NCBI GenBank assembly: GCA_003166865.1
Contig: PMUP01000025.1
Coordinates: forward strand, 240,094-304,093
Length of the DNA: 64,000 nucleotides
Direction: 5' to 3'
Origin: Bryobacterales bacterium
GTDB lineage: Bacteria > Acidobacteriota > Terriglobia > Bryobacterales > Bryobacteraceae
Below, in pieces: positions 28,562 to 61,418 of this stretch (the first letter of the stretch is position 1; the number at the start of each line of letters is the position of its first letter). Made by a program: the position numbers and the translations under genes. A model generated the notes under the pieces. That model saw only the letters and a program-made list of their open reading frames with translations. It was not told the DNA's origin and made no database searches.

Positions 28562-29257
28562 TCACAAAATGTTCACCGCCCGAGCCGCTAGCAGCGCCAC
28601 CGTGACCAGCGAAATGCTGGCTTGCACCATCATCATTACCTTGGCCCAGCGCGACAGCACCGGTACATCGGTGGGCGAAAACGCCGTGCTGGTGTTGAAC
28701 GCCAGGAACAGATAGTCCACAAATCCCGGCCGCCAGTTCTTATCGCTGTCCCATGGAGTAATCATTTGGGGAAAAAGGAACGCCCCGTCGTCGTGCGACT
28801 CTCTTCGGTCGCGTTCGTTGGGGCCGCCTGCGTCCAACCGCCAGTACCATGAGGCGAACACCAGAATATTGGCCACCCAAAGACACGCGGCGCCACGCAG
28901 AAGCTCTACCGGCGAATCAGCATGCGAGGGCAAACGATGGATCAACAGACTGAGCGAACCAACCATCGAGGCGGTTATGATGCCCAGCACCATATGACCG
29001 AAAATCCGGTTCAGACGATCCTTGCCGATTTGGTGGGTCACGATGGTCGGTATAAGCAACACCGAAACAACCGCCAGTAGCAGCCACTGCTGCCCGAATC
29101 GCAGCGGCGCCGGCATGACGAAATACAGCCCGCCGGTGGCCAGGAACGCAAGTATCGCCGGCCAGCGAGGTTCGCGTTCCCTGGGCTCGGACCCGGCTGG
29201 TTGGGATAAGGCGTTCGTCTGAGACATATGGGACAATGTACCAAGCCACCTCCCCAT
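28562..29257 (-). CDS. DUF1345-family membrane protein
   Basis: 231 aa. The C-terminal FNTSTAFSPTDV...W motif region is typical of DUF1345. An alternative start is at 29227. Confidence 0.7.
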   Translation of the reverse strand: MGRWLGTLSHMSQTNALSQPAGSEPREREPRWPAILAFLATGGLYFVMPAPLRFGQQWLLLAVVSVLLIPTIVTHQIGKDRLNRIFGHMVLGIITASMVGSLSLLIHRLPSHADSPVELLRGAACLWVANILVFASWYWRLDAGGPNERDRRESHDDGAFLFPQMITPWDSDKNWRPGFVDYLFLAFNTSTAFSPTDVPVLSRWAKVMMMVQASISLVTVALLAARAVNIL

Positions 29258-29506
29258 GAAGGTTGTAGTTCAAAGTTCGTCATTGATCTTTACCGTGCTT
29301 TCGATCATCCTGAACGTGCCGATCACTCGCGTAAAGCGAAAACCGGTGGGCCGGGAAGTGACGCGCAGAGAACCCAGTGCTGCGACCGGCTAGGGGCGGC
29401 GCCGCTTCCTGGCCAAGGCCGACCCGCCGCGGTGGCCGCGACATTAGACACCCAGCGTCAGTCGTACGCTGAACGAGCAGGGTTATTCGATTCAGCACGA
29501 ACAGCC

Positions 29507-32254
29507 ATGGCTATTTCACCTCGATTAGCACTGTCTCGGCCGGATGGCGAAGAGCCATCGAAGAGTTCCCGCGATTGCGTCTACTCCTTCGACCTGCACG
29601 GGAATCTGATCGAAATGAACTCCGCCTTGGCCGAAATCATCGGCTATGATCGCGATAAAGCAGCCCCGTTGAATCTCAGCCAACTGCTCGACCAGGAATC
29701 CTGGCAACGTTCGCGCGAGCAGGTTCTGGCGTTGCTCGGGGGTAGCGGGACCCAGACGCTGGAGCTTACCGCCATCGGAAACGACGGTCAGCGAATCCGG
29801 ATGGAGGTTGTGCGCCGTCTGTTATTTGAGCGTGGCAGGCCGGTGGCGGTTCAGGACACCGGACGTCTCCTCTACGATGCCGCGGAAGAACTTCCCAGCC
29901 TGCTGGGAGAGGCAGAAACAGACTTGCTCCCAAAATCCGAGCCTTTGAACCGCTTCGCTGAGCAGTTGAAGCAATTGCATCGGCTCTCGACCACCAACTA
30001 CGTCACGCTCGAGCAGGCTTTCGAGGACCACTTGCGGACCGGTTGCCAACTGTTTGACCTGCCCATCGGATTGCTTCTGCAAGTGCAAGGAAGCCACGGC
30101 CTGATTCAGGCTTCGTACGGCGCCTCGGACCTCCAACCAGGCGCCACAATTCTGTTGTTGCGGGAAACGCGCGCGCACACCATCGAAGGGCGGCTCAGGA
30201 CCGTGACGGTCTCGGCTAAGGCCTCGCCTGACGGCCAACCGCAGCCCGCGTTCGAGACCTACATTGGCACTCCGGTGTGGCTCGGCGCGGAGCTGTTTGC
30301 AACGCTGAGCTTCTCGTCCCCATACACCGGCGCGGCGCGCGCCTTCACGTCGGCCGATCGAGAGCTGATCGAGCTGATGGCGCGGAGCATCGGACGCGTG
30401 ATTCTGGAGCACAGAATTCAATCCGAGCGCGACCGGCTCCAGAGCCTGGAGAAGAACCGCAACTCGGTGCTCGAGATGGTCGCCGAGAACGAAAGCATCG
30501 AGGCGATCCTGGCGGAAGTAGCGCGTCTGGTGGAGGAGGAGCGCCCGGGAACGCTGTGCTCTTTACTGATTCTCAAGGATGAGGTGCTGGCGTGGGCCTC
30601 GGCGCCCAGCTTCCCGCCGGATGCCATCCGGATCTTCAAACCGTTCCGGGTGCTCAGAGGCACCGCCGCCCTGGCAACCGCTGAGGTGGCGCGTTCCACG
30701 GTTTTCTGGGACGACGTTCGCACTTGTCCGTTCTGGGCCGAGCGAGGGCACTTCGCCGCCCAGATGGGCATTGTATCCTGCCGCTCCACTCCCATTCTTT
30801 CAGCGGATGGTGTTCTGCTTGGAATCCTGGCGCTGCACTATAAAGAGGGCCAGCCGCATGACTACAGCGACACCGAACTGCTGCAAGCGGCCGCCCGTCT
30901 AGCGGCGCGCGCTCTGGAACAGCGAGGCCTCAACGAACGCCTGGAGTTCCAGGCGCGGCATGACTCCCTTACCGGCCTGCCCAACCGCTCCTATTTCATG
31001 GAACTCCTCAATGCGGCTTTAGAGGACGCGGGCCAGCGCTCGGGCTACCTGGCCGTGCTGTTCATCGATCTCGACCGCTTCAAACAGATCAACGATATCC
31101 TCGGCCACGCCATGGGTGACCGGCTGTTGAAAGAAGTAGGCCAGCGCCTGAAGCGGTTGCTGACCGCCGACGATCTGGCCGGCCGCATGGGCGGCGACGA
31201 GTTCATCATTGTTCTTACGCGCCAGCCCGATGAGCAGGCCGTAGCACTGGCATCGCGGGAGTTCCTGATGGCCCTGCGCGCGCCGCACCAGATTGAAGAC
31301 AACGAGCTGTTCGTCACGGCCAGCATCGGCGTCGCCATTTATCCCCGGCATGGCAAGACTGTCGCCGAACTGCTACGCAACGCAGACCTGGCGATGTATC
31401 ACGCCAAGAATAGCGGCAAGAACGAAGTGGAGGTTTTCCGGGCCGAGGACCACGCCGCCAGCCTGGAACGCCTGCGCCTGGAGAACGCGCTGCGCCGCGC
31501 GCTGGAACACCAGGAATTCGAGCTGCTTTATCAGCCCGTGGTCGGCATGAACGGGAAGGTGGAGGGCTTGGAGGCGCTGCTCACCTGGCGGCATCCCATC
31601 TACGGGACCATCTCTCCCAAGCAGTTCATCCCGATCGCCGAGGAAACCGGTCTGATCATCGATATCGGATCGTGGGTGATCCGCAGGGCCTGTCTCGAAG
31701 CTGCCAGTTGGCACAAAGCCGGTCACAGCGCGGCCCGCATTTCGGTCAACGTGTCGGCATTGCAGTTTGAACGGCGCGATTTCGTGGAAACCGTGGCCGA
31801 CGCGCTGGCACTGAGCAATCTGCCGCCCGACCGGCTGGAGCTGGAGCTGACCGAAAGCTACATCATGAAGGATCTCCCGCAAGCGGCCGCGCGCTTCGCC
31901 CAGATCCGGAAGCTTGGCATCAGCATCGCGATAGACGATTTTGGCACCGGCTATTCGTCGCTCAGCTATCTGAACAAGCTGCCCGTGGATTCCCTCAAAA
32001 TCGACCAATCGTTCTTGCGCAACCTGAATGAGCCGGAAGGATCGCTGGCGGTGATCCAGAGCATCGTGCGGATGGCGCACAGCATGAATCTCACGGTGGT
32101 GGCCGAGGGAGTGGAGACGCGCGCGGAGTTGGATCTGGTGCGCGTGCTCGGTTGCGACAAGGTGCAAGGGCACGTGTATGGGCCGGCGCGGCGTCGCGAG
32201 GATGTGGAGGCGTTGCTGGCTGCCCACGATTCGCTGGGTCCGCTGGAGACGTAG
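29507..32254 (+). CDS. PAS-GAF-GAF-GGDEF-EAL signalling protein (c-di-GMP cyclase/phosphodiesterase)
   Basis: GGDEF motif (RMGGDEFIIVL). EAL-domain motifs (EALLTWRH, DDFGTGYSSLSYL). ATG at 29507 is preferred over the track start at 29228. Confidence 0.9.
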   Translation: MAISPRLALSRPDGEEPSKSSRDCVYSFDLHGNLIEMNSALAEIIGYDRDKAAPLNLSQLLDQESWQRSREQVLALLGGSGTQTLELTAIGNDGQRIRMEVVRRLLFERGRPVAVQDTGRLLYDAAEELPSLLGEAETDLLPKSEPLNRFAEQLKQLHRLSTTNYVTLEQAFEDHLRTGCQLFDLPIGLLLQVQGSHGLIQASYGASDLQPGATILLLRETRAHTIEGRLRTVTVSAKASPDGQPQPAFETYIGTPVWLGAELFATLSFSSPYTGAARAFTSADRELIELMARSIGRVILEHRIQSERDRLQSLEKNRNSVLEMVAENESIEAILAEVARLVEEERPGTLCSLLILKDEVLAWASAPSFPPDAIRIFKPFRVLRGTAALATAEVARSTVFWDDVRTCPFWAERGHFAAQMGIVSCRSTPILSADGVLLGILALHYKEGQPHDYSDTELLQAAARLAARALEQRGLNERLEFQARHDSLTGLPNRSYFMELLNAALEDAGQRSGYLAVLFIDLDRFKQINDILGHAMGDRLLKEVGQRLKRLLTADDLAGRMGGDEFIIVLTRQPDEQAVALASREFLMALRAPHQIEDNELFVTASIGVAIYPRHGKTVAELLRNADLAMYHAKNSGKNEVEVFRAEDHAASLERLRLENALRRALEHQEFELLYQPVVGMNGKVEGLEALLTWRHPIYGTISPKQFIPIAEETGLIIDIGSWVIRRACLEAASWHKAGHSAARISVNVSALQFERRDFVETVADALALSNLPPDRLELELTESYIMKDLPQAAARFAQIRKLGISIAIDDFGTGYSSLSYLNKLPVDSLKIDQSFLRNLNEPEGSLAVIQSIVRMAHSMNLTVVAEGVETRAELDLVRVLGCDKVQGHVYGPARRREDVEALLAAHDSLGPLET

Positions 32255-32258
32255 TGGG

Positions 32259-32303
32259 GCGGTCCCCTGGACCGCGGCCGACGCCCCCGTCGGCCTCTGT
32301 TTT
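32259..32303 (+). terminator. Two tandem GC hairpins plus a T-rich tail after the GGDEF-EAL gene
   Basis: First hairpin: gcggtcc-cct-ggaccgc (32259-32275). Second hairpin: ggccgacg-cccc-cgtcggcc (32276-32295), followed by tctgttttgg. Confidence 0.6.
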
Positions 32304-32429
32304 GGATTCGAGGATATACACTTCACAGACCAGAATTGATCAGGAGAATTGTAGCTAGAGAATCTCCTTAGCTTTGCGTTCCTAAAGGGAAGGTTGACGC
32401 GCCATCTGATAATGTATCCATTTCTAGAC

Positions 32430-32447
32430 AACCTATAAATATAGGTT
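32430..32447. promoter_or_regulatory. Perfect 8-bp inverted repeat with 2-nt centre (AACCTATA-AA-TATAGGTT), candidate operator
   Basis: Read directly. It ends 12 nt upstream of the -35 box of the island promoter. Confidence 0.45.
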
Positions 32448-32459
32448 AAAAGGCAACAT

Positions 32460-32487
32460 TTGACAGTTTTAAATATCGAGGTATTAT
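32460..32487 (+). promoter_or_regulatory. Near-consensus sigma-70-type promoter (TTGACA-16 nt-TATTAT)
   Basis: TTGACA at 32460-32465 and TATTAT at 32482-32487. AGGAGA RBS at 32495-32500 and ATG at 32511. Confidence 0.55.
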
Positions 32488-32510
32488 ATGAATTAGGAGA
32501 TAGTATTAGT

Positions 32511-32717
32511 ATGACATTAGACCTGCAAGTGATGCTCGTGAAGACCGAGCTTATCAAAGTTAGAGCAGAGCGCGATGCCGCCGCAAAGGTGTGTGAGAAT
32601 GACACCGAGATTCGTGACGTGATTGCAACGCTCGACCGCATTGTTGAGGAGAAGGAGAGGATATTTCACGACCTGAAGGCCCAACTGCAAGTGAGCGTAC
32701 CAGGGGCGGAGAGATGA
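32511..32717 (+). CDS. Island ORF A: 68-aa acidic, helical/coiled-coil-like protein, unknown function
   Basis: Strong RBS 10 nt upstream. Sequence MTLDLQVMLVKTELIKVRAERDAAAKVCENDTEIRDVIATLDRIVEEKERIFHDLKAQLQ... The stop overlaps the next start (ATGA). Confidence 0.6.
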   Translation: MTLDLQVMLVKTELIKVRAERDAAAKVCENDTEIRDVIATLDRIVEEKERIFHDLKAQLQVSVPGAER

Positions 32718-33163
32718 CTCGTGAAGAAAAAGAGCAGAAAATTCAGGAGCCGGATGGCAAAGTCTTTGGGAATCAGAAGGTAAGAATTACGGAGTTCCAT
32801 CGCTGCAAGCAGTATGAGTGCTTAGCCTCGGTCGACAACGTAATGACTTCCACTGGCCACCTTAAGTTTTTTGACCTCGTGCCCGTCTCAGAGGGACTCC
32901 CTTCCTTTGAAGCAAGATGGGATGAGAAAGACGAATCGGTCGACATCGACATCAGGGGCGTGTCAGAACAGGACAAGAACCGGTTCAAGCACGGAAAAGG
33001 TGGATATAGCGGTCATTGGTCACGCCGAACGCCGACTGCCGACACGATCTATACCTATGAGGTGTGCATTTGGATCCCACGGGGGAGGGTATTTGAAGGG
33101 ACTGTAGACTTCACGGTTGTTCGAAGACAAGGCATACCTGGGAAGGCAAGTATCATAAACTGA
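32714..33163 (+). CDS. Island ORF B: 149-aa beta-rich protein, unknown function
   Basis: GGAGAG RBS-like sequence upstream. Codon usage is atypical for this genome (AGA, AGG, ATA, GTA, TTA). No motif recognised. Confidence 0.65.
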   Translation: MTREEKEQKIQEPDGKVFGNQKVRITEFHRCKQYECLASVDNVMTSTGHLKFFDLVPVSEGLPSFEARWDEKDESVDIDIRGVSEQDKNRFKHGKGGYSGHWSRRTPTADTIYTYEVCIWIPRGRVFEGTVDFTVVRRQGIPGKASIIN

Positions 33164-33265
33164 GAGCGTTTTGGTCTGTTACGTATGCTGGTGCTCCGCT
33201 TTGAGCATGTTGCCAGAGCCGGACCGGGGGGCTGGCGCGGACGCGGGCGTCCGCCCCACTCCATT

Positions 33266-35650
33266 TCATTCCACACGCAGCGACAACAGGCCGGCCAGCT
33301 CCTTGAATTCTGCGCTCCACCGGGATTCGCCCGGGTAGACTCTCTGCAGGATTTCGTAGCAGCGATTTTGCACCTGCCATAAGATCAACGGAAATGGCAG
33401 CGAGCAGGCCGCAGCGACAGTCTCGCGGAACCTGGCCAGGCGCGGCAAATCCTTGGGATCCTCCAGATACCGCTCCGCGCCTTTTTCGATATTGCGGCGC
33501 AGAGTAATCTCCAACCCGGTTTGATCCATTACGATCTCGGCGATCCGAATCTCTTCCAGTAGCCCCTGAATGATCGCCAGGTCGAGCTCCGGCGCCGCCA
33601 GCGCTTGCCGCAGTAAGCCGTTCAACGCCACTTCCGCGGTGGCTTTCAGTTCGCTGGGAATCGGCACGCCGCAGTCGCTCAGGAAACGCAGCAGCGGAGC
33701 TTGTTCCTCGTACATCTGGCGATAGACGGCCGAGGAGTGTTCCACCGTGGATTCGAGCGCTTCGGCCAGCACCTTGCGTTGTTCTTCGCGGAACAGATTC
33801 TTGAGCGAATACATGCGGCCGCCAAAGCCCTCGTCCAGGCAGCGGATAGTGGCCGCCAGATCCGAACGGCTGAAGGCTTCGCGCGTCGACTTGCCGAGCT
33901 CGCGGTAGGCGTCCTCGCTCCCGAACACGCCCACGCCTCCATGTAAATTGTGGTCGCCGAAATGGAGCACGCCGAAAATCAGCATCTCGGAGTCCTGCGT
34001 GATCTCCGACGTGAAGCGCGCCTTGCCAAAGGCCAGCCGCAGCTTGCCCGAGCGCTTCAGACGATAGTCCTTGTTCTCCACCGAATAGGAGTAAATGCGC
34101 GTGCTATCGGGGTAGCTCTCAAACAAGGAATTCATGGCGTAGTGCGCGCCCAGCTTCACCAAGTCCACGCGGGCCGGCTTGACCAGCGTTTCAAAGATAC
34201 GCGCGCCGTCGGCGTGAGCTGGAAGGTTGCTCTTGGCAAGCGCGAGTTTCCGCACGAAGCCCGCTTCGATTGCCTCCCCGAAAAGTTCGCCGGCCAGCTC
34301 CGCCACGCGGCCGGCGTACTGGATCACTTGCACCGTCTCGATGCCCGAGAGCTCGTCGAAAAACCAGCCGCAACTGGTGTACATCAGCAGCGTGTGACGC
34401 TGCATCTCCAGCAGCTTCCAGACGCTGACGCGCTCGCTCCGCTGGAGGTTCTTGCGCCGGAAATTGGCCGCCGCGAAGCGTTCCTTGCTGGCTGGCGACC
34501 GGTCTAGAATGACGTGAATATAGTTGTTCCGCGCCGCCCACGGATCCTTGAAGTAGCGCGCCGCCATTTTTTCATAGCGTGGTGCGATTTCGTCGCGCAA
34601 CCAATCCAGCGCCGCGCGCAGGGGACCCCGCCATTCCTGATTCCAGTCCGGATGCCCGCCGGAATTGCAGCCGCAGTTGGCGGTCCAACGTCCCACGCCG
34701 TGCACACAGCTCCAAGCAGTGTTCTCCAGGATCTCCACATGCTGTTCGGGAGGATGCTGCTCGAGAAACTCGGCATAGTTGGTGACCTTCGCCAGGCCGC
34801 TCGATTCGATGTGGTCGAGCGCGTACGCCAGCGCCATGTCGCCGAACGGGTGATGGTGTCCGTAAGTTTCGCCATCGGTTGCGATATGCGCCAGTTGCGG
34901 ACCTTCGCGCTCATCCGAAAGCGCCTCCAGGAGCCGGCTGGCGAAGCGCTCGCCATTGTCCAGCAAGCGCTCAAACGCGACCGCCTGCGAAACCGGCCCG
35001 TCATAAAAGAACAAGTCGATGGAACGTCCCGATGCCAGCTTCTGCCGGTAAACGCGCGCTGGATCGATCCGCTGGCCGGTGACGTCGGTTCCGTCGACGG
35101 ATTTGGCCTGCGACGGCGCCAGGATGGTGAACTTGATCCGATGCTGTGCCAGCAGGTCCAGCGTCTCCAGGTCGACAGCCGTTTCCGGAAGCCACATGCC
35201 TTCCGGATCGCGCCCGAAGCGAAAGCGGAAGTCCTGGATGCCCCAAATCACTTGCGTCAGTTTGTCGCGCGCATTGGCGAGCGGCATGATCATGTGGTTG
35301 TAGCATTGCGCCAGCGCCGATCCATGGCCCGAAAAGCGTTGCGCGCTCACGCGGTCGGCGTCCACGATGGACTGGTAAGTTTCCGGAGCCTTGTCCCTCA
35401 TCCAGGACAACAAGGTGGGCCCGAAGTTAAAACTGATGCCGGCGTAGTTGTTCACGATCTTTGCGATGCGGCTCTCAGGGTCCAAGATCCGGGCCGCGCT
35501 GTTGGGCGCGTAGCATTCCGCCGTCACGCGCTCGTTCCAATCGTGATACGGCGCGGCGGAATCCTGGAGTTCGATCGCCTCCAGCCATGGGTTTTCGCGC
35601 GGCGGCTGATAGAAGTGACCGTGAATGCAAAGGTATCGGTTTTGGTTCAT
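33266..35650 (-). CDS. Glycoside hydrolase family 57 protein with C-terminal DUF3536-like extension
   Basis: 794 aa. The N-terminus LCIHGHFYQPPRENPW is a GH57 hallmark. Confidence 0.9.
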   Translation of the reverse strand: MNQNRYLCIHGHFYQPPRENPWLEAIELQDSAAPYHDWNERVTAECYAPNSAARILDPESRIAKIVNNYAGISFNFGPTLLSWMRDKAPETYQSIVDADRVSAQRFSGHGSALAQCYNHMIMPLANARDKLTQVIWGIQDFRFRFGRDPEGMWLPETAVDLETLDLLAQHRIKFTILAPSQAKSVDGTDVTGQRIDPARVYRQKLASGRSIDLFFYDGPVSQAVAFERLLDNGERFASRLLEALSDEREGPQLAHIATDGETYGHHHPFGDMALAYALDHIESSGLAKVTNYAEFLEQHPPEQHVEILENTAWSCVHGVGRWTANCGCNSGGHPDWNQEWRGPLRAALDWLRDEIAPRYEKMAARYFKDPWAARNNYIHVILDRSPASKERFAAANFRRKNLQRSERVSVWKLLEMQRHTLLMYTSCGWFFDELSGIETVQVIQYAGRVAELAGELFGEAIEAGFVRKLALAKSNLPAHADGARIFETLVKPARVDLVKLGAHYAMNSLFESYPDSTRIYSYSVENKDYRLKRSGKLRLAFGKARFTSEITQDSEMLIFGVLHFGDHNLHGGVGVFGSEDAYRELGKSTREAFSRSDLAATIRCLDEGFGGRMYSLKNLFREEQRKVLAEALESTVEHSSAVYRQMYEEQAPLLRFLSDCGVPIPSELKATAEVALNGLLRQALAAPELDLAIIQGLLEEIRIAEIVMDQTGLEITLRRNIEKGAERYLEDPKDLPRLARFRETVAAACSLPFPLILWQVQNRCYEILQRVYPGESRWSAEFKELAGLLSLRVE

Positions 35651-59509: not shown

Positions 59510-60595
59510 GTGAAAGATCAAACCACTTCAATCGACACCGCCGCGCGTCAACGCGCCATTGACGCCGCCCTCGCTCAGATGGACAAGCAATTCGGTAAGG
59601 GCTCGGTACTTCGCCTCGGCTCCCGCAATGTTCTGCCCGTGGCCGTGATATCCAGCGGCTCCATTTCGGTGGATACCGCGTTGGGCGTGGGTGGCTTCCC
59701 GCGCGGCCGGGTGCTGGAAATCTTTGGGCCCGAGTCGTCCGGTAAAACCACCATGGCCTTGCAGGTGATCGCGCAGGCGCAAAAAGCCGGCGGAACAGCG
59801 GCGTTTATCGATGCCGAACATGCGCTGGACGCGGCCTACGCCCGCAATCTTGGAGTGGACGTGGACAACCTGATCGTCTCGCAGCCCGACTATGGCGAAC
59901 AGGCGCTCGAAATCACCGGCGCGCTCATCGGCTCCGGCGGGATCGATGTCGCGGTGGTGGATTCCGTCGCGGCGCTGGTGCCGAAGGCCGAGCTGGATGG
60001 TGAGATGGGCGATAGCCACATGGGTCTGCATGCCCGGCTGATGTCGCAGGCGCTGCGGAAACTCACTGGTACGGTAGCGCGGACCAATACGCTGCTGGTT
60101 TTTATCAATCAAGTGCGAGAGAAGATCGGTGTCATGTTCGGCAATCCCGAAACCACTACCGGAGGACGCGCGCTGAAGTTTTATTCCTCGGTCAGAGTAG
60201 AAGTGCGCCGGATGGCCGCCATTAAAGACGGCGAGAAAATCGTTGGTAACCGCACCAAGGTCAAGATCGTGAAGAACAAAGTGGCCGCGCCGTTCCGCGA
60301 AGCGGAAGTGGACATCCTGTACGGTCAGGGAATCTCGCGCGAAGGCGACCTGCTGGATCTGGGAGTCATTCAGGAACTTGTGGAAAAGAGCGGTTCGTGG
60401 TTTAGCTACGCAGGCCAGCGCATCGGCCAAGGCCGCGATAATGCCAGAACGTTCCTCGCCGAGAACCCGGCGCTGGCCGATCGCCTGGACGCCGAATTGC
60501 GCGCGCGGCTCAGCCTCCCCAACGCCGCCGGCCCCGCATCGCTACCCGCCGCGAGCGATTCGCTGGAGCTGGCGCAAACCGCCCGGACCGCGTAA
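59510..60595 (+). CDS. recA: Recombinase RecA
   Basis: Unmistakable RecA sequence ([12 protein letters not shown]; FIDAEHALD; [24 protein letters not shown]). GTG at 59510 is the first plausible start upstream of [18 protein letters not shown]. Confidence 0.95.
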
Positions 60596-60704
60596 ATTCG
60601 AGCTTTCAACGGTTCTGTTAGCTTCAAAACCCCATTCCATCGGCTCCCCGCATGTGCTAGGCTCAGAAAGCTGAGAAAAAACGCTGGTTTGGAGCATTCT
60701 GCTC

Positions 60705-60733
60705 TTTACAAGCGTCTTGGCATCTCGTATGAT
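60705..60733 (+). promoter_or_regulatory. Candidate sigma-70 promoter for hup (TTTACA-17 nt-TATGAT)
   Basis: Read directly. It predicts a leader of about 100 nt that contains the 15-bp repeats. Confidence 0.45.
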
Positions 60734-60785
60734 TTGGTAGAAAACAATTCGATACGGTTATGTTTTAAGCAAGCCGGACCGGATT

Positions 60786-60830
60786 TGGAAGAACCATAAC
60801 TGGAAGAACCATACTTGGAAGAACCAAACA
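60786..60830 (+). repeat. Three tandem 15-bp repeats TGGAAGAACCAnAnn immediately upstream of the hup RBS
   Basis: tggaagaaccataac / tggaagaaccatact / tggaagaaccaaaca, followed by AGGAGAAG and ATG at 60842. Confidence 0.9.
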
Positions 60831-60841
60831 AGGAGAAGTAA

Positions 60842-61144
60842 ATGGCAGTAGCTAAGTTGACGCAGACGCAAGTAATCAAGGAACTGGCCGGAGCCGTCGG
60901 TACCACCACGAAGGTAGCCAAGCAGTTCGTTACGAGTTTCTCTGAATTGGCCGTTCGCGAGACCAAGAAGAACGGTCTGTTTGTGATCCCCGGCATTGGC
61001 CGCCTGGTGCGCGTGGACCGCAAGGCGCGCCTCGGCCGCAATCCAGCCACCGGCGAGACCATCAAGATTCCCGCCAAGAAAGTAGTGAAGTTCAGGGTGG
61101 CGAAAGCCGTGAAGGACGCGATCGTACCTCCCAAGAAGAAGTAG
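60842..61144 (+). CDS. hup: HU/IHF-family DNA-binding protein
   Basis: 100 aa. ...GLFVIPGIGRLVRVDRKARLGRNPATGETIKIPAKKVVKFR... is the typical HU beta-arm. Confidence 0.9.
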   Translation: MAVAKLTQTQVIKELAGAVGTTTKVAKQFVTSFSELAVRETKKNGLFVIPGIGRLVRVDRKARLGRNPATGETIKIPAKKVVKFRVAKAVKDAIVPPKKK

Positions 61145-61168
61145 ATCTCACTACTCAAAAAACACAAA

Positions 61169-61200
61169 CCCCCGCGCAGCGTATCGCGGGGGTTCTGTTT
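61169..61200 (+). terminator. Rho-independent terminator after hup
   Basis: cccccgcg-cagcgtat-cgcggggg hairpin followed by ttctgtttc. Confidence 0.7.
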
Positions 61201-61253
61201 CTAAAATCGATTAGGTCCGTTCAGCTTGCGAACAAACCAGGAAGCCTTTACGC

Positions 61254-61418
61254 CTACTTCTTTTCGTCGTTGTCGTGTTCCTCTTTCACAGCGTTCTTGA
61301 AGTTCTTAATGCCTTCGCCTAAACCTTTCGCCAGCTCAGGAATCTTCTTTCCGCCAAATAGCAGAACGGCGACTACCAAAATGACCACTAGTTCAGGAAA
61401 GCCAATGGATCGGAACAT
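61254..61418 (-). CDS. tatA: Twin-arginine translocase subunit TatA/E
   Basis: Hand translation gives [54 protein letters not shown] (54 aa). TAAGGAGG RBS. The ORF is too short for the ORF track. Confidence 0.85.

Follow-up and report, generated by a model that had tools for sequence, protein, structure and literature searches.

A two-gene AT-rich segment between convergent host genes

The stretch of DNA analysed here (the window, 64,000 nt of contig PMUP01000025.1 from a Bryobacterales bacterium) contains a compact, AT-rich segment located between a gene for a GGDEF-EAL signalling protein and the convergent gene for a GH57 glycoside hydrolase. This segment, to which we refer as the islet, carries a promoter-like sequence and two small overlapping open reading frames (ORFs), orfA and orfB (Table 1). 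An earlier note, made from the sequence alone, had described positions 32306-33167 as a low-GC island lying between a terminator and the GH57 gene, and this proved correct at every scale that we used. The GC content of the segment is 0.474, compared to a mean of 0.603 for the window (z = -5.9 against all 862-nt windows), and the GC minimum of the whole 64 kb falls within it in scans of 120, 200, 400 and 862 nt. The leader is the poorest part, with orfA at 0.527 and orfB at 0.500, while the genes on either side have values of 0.617 and 0.611. The same note held that the codons AGA, AGG, ATA, GTA and TTA were scarce in the neighbouring genes. Taking 27 long ORFs from the window with a high GC content at third codon positions (GC3) as the reference, these codons are 3-10 times more common in orfA and orfB than in the reference genes. 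GC3 is 0.62 in orfA and 0.57 in orfB (reference 0.745 +/- 0.03), the codon adaptation index is 0.53 and 0.50, respectively (reference 0.68), and an index as low as that of orfB was seen in 0 of the 84 host chunks of 150 codons. All three measures, windowed GC, GC3 and codon adaptation, thus deviate strongly from those of the host.

The host belongs to the Bryobacteraceae, and the nearest GH57 homologues with a name are annotated as coming from metagenome-assembled genomes of this family. The islet is fixed in this species in the contigs listed, occupies the same site in three other lineages, and is absent from equally close relatives. In the contigs of the same species (at least 98.5% nucleotide identity; 24 read via orfA and 14 via GH57), it always lies between the same two genes. 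The other carriers are L098/L099, L100 and L011, whose islets are 94%, 92% and 88% identical, respectively, to that of the window. Empty sites were found in L094/L095, L096 and L097, whose GH57 protein identities are 92%, 90% and 88%, and in the outgroup L014 (67%). In these relatives the intergenic region measures 109 bp (L094/L095), 50 bp (L096), 47 bp (L097) and 40 bp (L014), and all of them retain the synteny of YbjQ-GH57 convergent with GGDEF-EAL, the latter gene being syntenic in all relatives.

In a neighbour-joining tree of GH57 (435 shared codons, 300 bootstrap replicates), the carriers were monophyletic in none of the 300 replicates: carrier L011 paired with the empty L096 (97%), and the empty L094 fell inside the clade formed by the window, L100 and L098 (100%). 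The islet is also less diverged than the genes beside it. Between the window and L098, its synonymous divergence (dS) was 0.085 +/- 0.025 and the Jukes-Cantor distance of the leader was 0.083, compared to a dS of 0.407 +/- 0.037 for GH57 and of 0.347 +/- 0.07 for the 3' end of the GGDEF-EAL gene. The values for the islet and GH57 were 0.151 and 0.301 against L100, and 0.251 and 0.353 against L011; overall, the neutral divergence of the islet is 1.4-4.8 times below that of the flanking genes. Empty sites, polyphyletic carriers and low islet divergence point together to a recent lateral spread among related lineages rather than to old vertical inheritance, and from the divergence and the tree we infer that the islet spread between these lineages after they had split. 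The idea advanced in the note, that the segment was horizontally acquired and carries cargo without a mobility gene, is thus well supported by the comparison with related genomes that it had suggested: carriers and empty sites were both found, the composition is foreign, the carriers are not monophyletic, and the segment holds only orfA and orfB. The ratio of non-synonymous to synonymous divergence (dN/dS) of the islet genes is 0.3-0.47 (0.08-0.16 for GH57), which indicates that the two ORFs are coding and under moderate constraint.

Table 1. Positions of the islet, its parts and the surrounding features in the window
Feature	Positions	Strand	Basis or remark
Upstream host gene, PAS-GAF-GGDEF-EAL signalling protein	29228..32254	+	Pfam EAL 4.7e-73, GGDEF 1.6e-50, GAF
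Inverted repeat, left arm	32255..32299	.	two small GC-rich hairpins, 32259-32275 and 32276-32295
GTTTTGG, left copy	32299-32305	+	in terminator T-tract
AT-rich leader	32306..32510	+	GC 0.356
Palindrome with perfect 8-nt arms, AACCTATAaaTATAGGTT	32430-32447		ends 12 nt upstream of the -35 hexamer
Sigma-70-like promoter	TTGACA 32460-32465, 16-nt spacer, TATTAT 32482-32487	+	promoter scan, 11/12 matches
Shine-Dalgarno sequence AGGAG	32495-32499	+	11 nt before the orfA start codon
orfA, 68-residue helical, coiled-coil-like orphan	32511..32717	+	ORF; overlaps orfB by ATGA
orfB, 149-residue beta-rich protein	32714..33163	+	start overlaps the orfA stop codon (ATGA)
GTTTTGG, right copy	33168-33174	+	4 nt past the orfB stop codon
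Spacer between orfB and right arm	33175..33213	.	alignment: common only to islet-carrying relatives
Inverted repeat, right arm	33214..33258	.	on the - strand, GC-rich hairpin directly after the GH57 stop codon
Downstream host gene, GH57 / DUF3536 glycoside hydrolase, convergent	33266..35650	-	Pfam DUF3536 8e-116, Glyco_hydro_57 1e-18

The terminator palindrome at the insertion site

The hairpin at 32276-32295, together with the T-tract at 32296-32305, was identified in a terminator scan as the terminator-like site of the GGDEF-EAL gene. The left and right arms form a 45-nt imperfect inverted repeat, with a local alignment score of 20 compared to 10.1 +/- 1.9 for shuffled sequences (P ~0.0005); the score is 23 in L098, and the top score among 3000 random genomic pairs of equal geometry was 18. 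Read from the two stop codons inwards, both arms begin with TGGGGCGG, continue with small GC-rich hairpins, and reconverge at the common word CTCTG (left GGCCTCTG, right GGCTCTG). L098 has an intact second hairpin in the right arm; that of the window is degenerate. Between these two carriers the arms are ~92% identical, a low divergence similar to that of the islet. Immediately outside the arms are the two stop codons, which share no repeat, and so there is no outer target-site duplication. No other copy of the arms was found in the window or, away from this site, in the loci that we fetched, and the possibility that they belong to a multi-copy family resembling repetitive extragenic palindromic (REP) elements was discarded since the window contains no further copy. 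The window contains no tRNA gene.

When positions 32306-33174 were removed in silico, the joined flanks folded into one long hairpin of 142 nt (-73 kcal/mol). The 109-nt intergenic region of the empty L094 site likewise forms a single long hairpin (-48 kcal/mol); the hairpins of L096 and L097 are shorter. At their outer ends the arms have 7-8 nt (GTGGSGC / GCSCCAC) in common with the palindromes of the empty sites, and two halves of a host terminator palindrome would therefore account for the arms as well as the terminal inverted repeats of a mobile element would; the inner parts of the arms cannot be aligned with the empty-site palindromes. On the simplest reading, a bidirectional-terminator palindrome of the host type has the AT-rich core at its apex, and what the carriers have in common is the entire intergenic unit, arms included.

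The empty-site palindromes themselves vary. Those of L094 (L094:7386-7494) and L096 (L096:7401-7450) have the common base GTGGCGCAC(G/A)CAC...GCGCCAC and are 109 and 50 bp long, respectively, that of L094 holding additional internal hairpins. This difference in length implies that the terminator palindrome evolves fast, through insertions and deletions in its interior, also where the islet is absent.

orfA, orfB and the orfB family

The palindrome, the -10 hexamer and the Shine-Dalgarno sequence of the leader are unchanged in L098 despite 16 differences in 204 leader positions. No Rfam match was obtained in 32100-33400, and neither orfA nor orfB gave a significant match in Pfam, NCBIfam, PADLOC or PHROGs. 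Homologues of orfA were found only at this locus, in searches that covered 5.8 billion clustered proteins and 116 related loci, and its profile gave weak matches of the coiled-coil type only against the PDB. Two assignments for orfA were rejected: a match to DUF5930 (E = 0.008) was below threshold and of a kind typical of coiled-coil sequences, and a ribbon-helix-helix protein, an idea that came from reading the sequence by eye, was not supported by the profile search against the PDB, which returned no ribbon-helix-helix or helix-turn-helix protein. The orfA ORF is intact in L098, L099 and L011. Its dN/dS is 0.5-1.0, from few substitutions, and near 1 against L098.

orfB has only four close clusters, and a profile search of 1.84 billion representatives placed it in a family of 373 clusters at E <= 1e-3 (206 at E <= 1e-10). 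The family is widespread, and its proteins, predicted to be soluble and beta-rich, are ~150 residues long and share the motif TG.L..F.L.P...P.F..RWD...(L/V)DIDI.GVS...F..G..GY.GH(H), in which R68 and G100 are invariant and Y34, G48, L50, P63, F65, W69, D70, D77, D79, F91 and H101 nearly so. An AlphaFold2 model of orfB computed with a 74-sequence alignment had a mean predicted local distance difference test score (pLDDT) of 88.5 and a predicted template modelling score of 0.79, and is mainly beta with two short helices; the model from a 5-sequence alignment (pLDDT 45) was unusable. R68, D70, D77, D79 and H101 would make up a charged site on a beta-hairpin, which hints at the binding of a metal or another ligand. 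The predicted fold is without a detectable relative and the family is uncharacterised: no Pfam, PHROG or PADLOC match to the domain was seen in the 74 members scanned, the family is absent from PADLOC-DB v2, a profile search against PDB sequences gave no match to orfB, and all the source names retrieved for the family are 'hypothetical protein'.

The dN/dS of orfB is 0.26-0.46. Both genes are intact in the window and in L011, and the ORFs are also intact in L100. In the carrier lineage of L098 and L099, sampled in two different metagenomes, codon 11 of orfB is a premature stop (L098:1002-1319 and L099:298-615; CAG to TAG, corresponding to 32744-32746 of the window). The remaining 138 codons and orfA are intact, and the gene callers restart at Met44. 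This stop reflects either a recent inactivation or the use of an internal start. Two fusions were noted within the family. P0268 (379 residues, on a 1.5-kb JGI contig) has an N-terminal orfB-family domain and a C-terminal head-morphogenesis domain of the Phage_Mu_F / SPP1 gp7 type (Pfam 2.3e-10; PHROG head morphogenesis 2e-20), and one further member carries a fused HTH_17 domain.

A degenerate, hand-made DNA pattern retrieved 119 metagenomic stretches, 116 of which encode a member of the family. The neighbours vary greatly: the 139 nearest-neighbour proteins include members of 70 Pfam families and comprise a mixture of housekeeping and mobile or defence functions. Strong PADLOC matches were obtained for at least 13 of these 139 proteins, a rough count made on short contigs and without a matched background. 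These proteins are PARIS AriAB (3e-223), PD-Lambda-4_A (1e-215), Gabija GajB (3e-177), a CARF protein, a CBASS cyclase, HKD+Snf2 (twice), NsnA, PDC-S02, PDC-S05, PDC-S11 and PD-T4-2_A. In 79% of the 48 loci of at least 3 kb the family gene had a lower GC content than its surroundings (mean -3.7 points, p = 4e-7). About one third of the loci had a tightly coupled gene upstream; these genes were of many unrelated kinds and included those for coiled-coil, HExxH and XRE-type proteins (the last judged by eye). The idea of a conserved partner for orfB was consequently dropped, since orfA-like proteins occur only at this locus and the upstream genes elsewhere are heterogeneous.

Some of these neighbourhoods deserve description. 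A protein of ~211 residues with an HExxH motif (AHEIVHVL) and without a Pfam or PADLOC match was encoded in five loci (L104, L124, L116, L195 and L199), either 0-38 nt upstream of the family gene or overlapping it by 13 nt; it may be a second type of partner, metallopeptidase-like in nature. A recurrent low-GC locus (L127:4581-12488, also seen in L203, L212, L183, L118 and L191) has the order type IIG-like Eco57I/MmeI methyltransferase, 158-residue coiled-coil protein, family gene (7-nt overlap) and HKD(PLD)-Snf2 helicase (PADLOC C3a139, 7e-80). The family gene and its coiled-coil partner appear there to be embedded in a defence locus, DISARM-like or restriction-like. A homologue 57% identical to orfB is found without orfA in L012 (= L109; features 215-679, 680-1133 and 1152-1227), where the C-terminal part of a tyrosine (phage-type) integrase, left as a frameshifted remnant, comes directly after it and precedes a tRNA-Met gene, a neighbourhood that looks like the remains of an integrative element. 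The phage and plasmid collections (50,697 phage genomes and 72,556 plasmids) gave no match to the islet DNA, to orfA, to orfB or to two divergent members of the family, and no relative was found in scans of IMG/VR. The sole match of the degenerate pattern to a viral contig in IMG/VR (L101:1445-1542) was set aside as a chance hit, in the wrong frame and in a phage tail-gene region.

Origin and possible role of the islet

We favour, with moderate confidence, the interpretation that this is a foreign, AT-rich genomic islet of ~0.9 kb, with its own promoter and a two-gene operon, located at the apex of the terminator palindrome that separates the GGDEF-EAL gene from the convergent GH57 gene in a group of Bryobacteraceae. 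The islet encodes no recombinase, orfA and orfB being its only genes and having no family match. It could have been inserted by structure-targeted integration mediated by an enzyme encoded elsewhere, by break repair at a cruciform-prone palindrome, or by allelic replacement with crossovers at the extreme ends of the two host genes.

The earlier note had favoured a different origin, a cargo-only unit (32306-33167) that transposed and duplicated a 7-bp target, GTTTTGG. The two copies of this word are located where the note placed them, in the tail of the upstream terminator and just after orfB, and both are kept in L098, but they do not behave as a target-site duplication and we regard this scenario as highly unlikely. 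On its + strand the window contains GTTTTGG 8 times, and an exact word of at least 7 nt is common to 6% (30-nt) or 25% (60-nt) of random window pairs placed 862 nt apart, a repeat of this length being thus expected by chance in a fair number of cases. The left copy is simply part of the terminator T-tract, and the right copy is altered to GTTTTAA in L011 and to GTTTCGG in L100. The difference from the empty sites does not stop at the two copies but reaches well past both, from ~32262 to 33251, which is nearly the entire intergenic region. Transposition of this kind would leave an empty site reading tctGTTTTGGtctgtt once, yet the empty sites that we saw are compact palindromes. No terminal inverted repeats adjoin the 7-mers, and no second copy of the unit was found in the window, in the fetched loci or in the phage and plasmid collections. 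The GTTTTGG pair is a coincidental match. A short inverted repeat of 16 nt near these positions (I4; 32320-32335 with 33169-33184) was not conserved in L098 and was also treated as chance. The mobile unit could instead be larger, a non-autonomous element of ~32255-33258 resembling the miniature inverted-repeat transposable elements, with the 45-nt arms as its ends, moved by a recombinase encoded elsewhere and targeting terminator or REP-like palindromes. The strength of the inverted repeat, the islet-like identity of the arms between the window and L098, their failure to align with the inner empty-site palindromes and the apparent lack of co-transferred flanking gene sequence would all suit such an element, and extragenic palindromes are known targets of some insertion sequences (PMC1525189). 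In contrast to the AT-rich core, however, the arms are rich in GC and resemble host DNA; they start 0-6 nt past the two stop codons, as native terminators do, and their outermost nucleotides are those of the empty-site palindromes. With no target-site duplication beyond them, no second copy of the arms in the window and the fetched loci, and no homologous cassette found at another site, we consider such an element unlikely.

Lateral gain might also be only apparent, if the segment were ancestral to this group of Bryobacteraceae and had been deleted independently in L094, L096 and L097. The position of the islet is identical in four lineages, and the GH57 tree is nearly star-shaped, so that few losses could suffice. 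A long residence, though, should have ameliorated the composition, which is still strongly foreign, and would not leave the islet with a neutral divergence so far below that of its flanks. The outgroup L014 is empty, and the empty sites are intact compact hairpins, not scars; independent loss is accordingly improbable. An islet that is what remains of a prophage or moron, or junk DNA in decay and without a current function, seems to us less probable still. The fusion of one family member to a Phage_Mu_F domain, the presence of two small terminase subunits and one ORF6N protein among the neighbours elsewhere, the premature stop in orfB of L098 and L099, and the dN/dS of orfA near 1 against L098 all fit such an origin. 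Against it stand the lack of any match to the islet and the family members tested in the phage genomes, the lack of a relative in the IMG/VR scans, the dN/dS of orfB with ORFs intact in the window, L011 and L100, and the conserved promoter elements.

If the islet is a laterally spread two-gene operon, as we favour, its expression can be sketched from the sequence. Transcription would start near 32494 from the sigma-70-like promoter and give a bicistronic mRNA, with orfB translated by coupling to orfA through the ATGA overlap, and the 8+8 palindrome AACCTATAaaTATAGGTT beside the promoter would be a candidate operator. For orfAB we tentatively propose a role as an accessory conflict module, associated with defence or resembling a toxin-antitoxin system, which we consider possible rather than probable; orfB would then be the effector, and the variable small helical protein encoded upstream its partner or regulator. 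A more ambitious version, in which the orfB family would be a new class of anti-phage defence or toxin effectors with an unseen beta-rich fold, distributed as minimal one- or two-gene cassettes, and in which the cassette would be moved by a structure-specific mechanism that targets bidirectional-terminator palindromes and uses the 45-nt arms as recombination ends, is a long shot.

Several observations weigh against the picture of a laterally spread conflict module. No recombination tract is visible in GH57 beside the islet. The divergence contrast rests on at most 3.4 kb of flank per relative, and mosaic flanking genes could inflate it. As to function, the enrichment of defence neighbours comes from the rough count given above, on short contigs without a matched background, and the copy of orfB in the window has housekeeping genes on both sides, outside any defence island. 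Many members of the family seem to stand alone as single genes, which would be unusual for a toxin. The family does not have orfA as a conserved partner, and no DNA-binding domain could be recognised in orfA; both points weaken the reading as a classical type II toxin-antitoxin system, and the premature stop in L098/L099 indicates that orfB is dispensable in at least one lineage. Beyond the lack of a match to orfB in Pfam, NCBIfam, PADLOC and PHROGs, a Foldseek search with its model gave no match at E <= 0.001; the best hits had E values of 0.11 (PDB) and 0.047 (BFVD), with template modelling scores of at most 0.34 among the matches listed.

As a phenomenon, the islet is of a known kind, a genomic islet carrying uncharacterised genes. 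It shares with other genomic islets the foreign GC content and codon usage, the presence/absence pattern with an intact empty site, the promoter of its own and the intergenic position between core genes. It differs from them in being unusually small (two genes, ~0.9 kb), in lying at the apex of a bidirectional terminator, bracketed by 45-nt inverted arms that travel with it, and in recurring at a single site in lineages that are not monophyletic. It is not readily seen as an integron gene cassette: it has its own promoter, and there is no integrase among the Pfam matches of the genes within ~6 kb, two features that argue against membership of that class.

In its sequence features the operon resembles the two-gene modules of the type II toxin-antitoxin and abortive-infection kinds (comparative survey in PMC2701414): it is bicistronic, with a 4-nt ATGA overlap, the small gene first and a palindrome adjacent to the promoter. 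The AT-rich foreign composition, the patchy distribution, the relatives in defence islands and the inactivation of the larger gene in one lineage are also reminiscent of these modules. On the other hand, no known family of toxins or antitoxins matches orfA or orfB, no DNA-binding fold was detected in orfA, which is also not conserved as a partner, and many members of the family look solo. By the guilt-by-association concept developed for the genes of defence islands (PMC3632139), the orfB family would be a candidate: its members occur directly beside Gabija GajB, PARIS AriAB, a type IIG restriction-modification enzyme with an HKD-Snf2 helicase, a CBASS cyclase, a CARF protein and PD-Lambda-4, and the family genes have a lower GC content than their surroundings. 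In contrast to such genes, the copy in the window is outside any defence island, and the family is missing from PADLOC-DB v2.

The position of the islet also recalls elements that target palindromes or terminators. There are bacterial group II introns that insert after terminators. Insertion sequences that target REP sequences (PMC1525189) and the REPINs mobilised by RAYT transposases (PMC3116915, PMC3333891) are further examples. As in these cases, the islet is inserted in or beside an intergenic GC-rich hairpin, no gene is disrupted, and the flanking hairpins form an inverted pair. Unlike them, it has no transposase, RAYT, reverse transcriptase or ribozyme, its arms are single-copy in the available sequence, and its cargo is an unrelated protein operon. 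The resemblance is one of location only.

The islet is a clean, small case of recent gene gain in uncultured soil Acidobacteriota, in which carrier and empty alleles are both present in near relatives and the insertion point, within a terminator palindrome, leaves every gene intact. Its main cargo defines a family that comprises ~370 clusters at the 50% identity level and is missing from Pfam, NCBIfam, PADLOC, PHROGs and the PDB, with a confident predicted structure, a conserved charged motif and a recurrent location beside Gabija, PARIS, CBASS, restriction-modification and other defence genes. Should the family turn out to act as an effector in defence or as a toxin, the catalogue of defence families would gain a new entry, and should the hairpin arms prove to be recombination ends, they would point to a terminator-targeting route of gene insertion.

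Two minor observations concern the rest of the window. The longest ORF of the GGDEF-EAL gene encodes 1008 residues, and the gene callers start later on identical contigs, giving proteins of 879, 897 or 915 residues; the N-terminal 90-130 residues of the long ORF are of low complexity and probably not translated. The second-lowest GC stretch of the window, 60550-61300 (GC 0.46-0.50), flanks the gene for a 100-residue HU/IHF-like DNA-binding protein (60842-61144), just 3' of recA, both genes being named from their translated ORFs, and it does not look like an islet but like an AT-rich regulatory region of the ordinary kind, belonging to a highly expressed gene.

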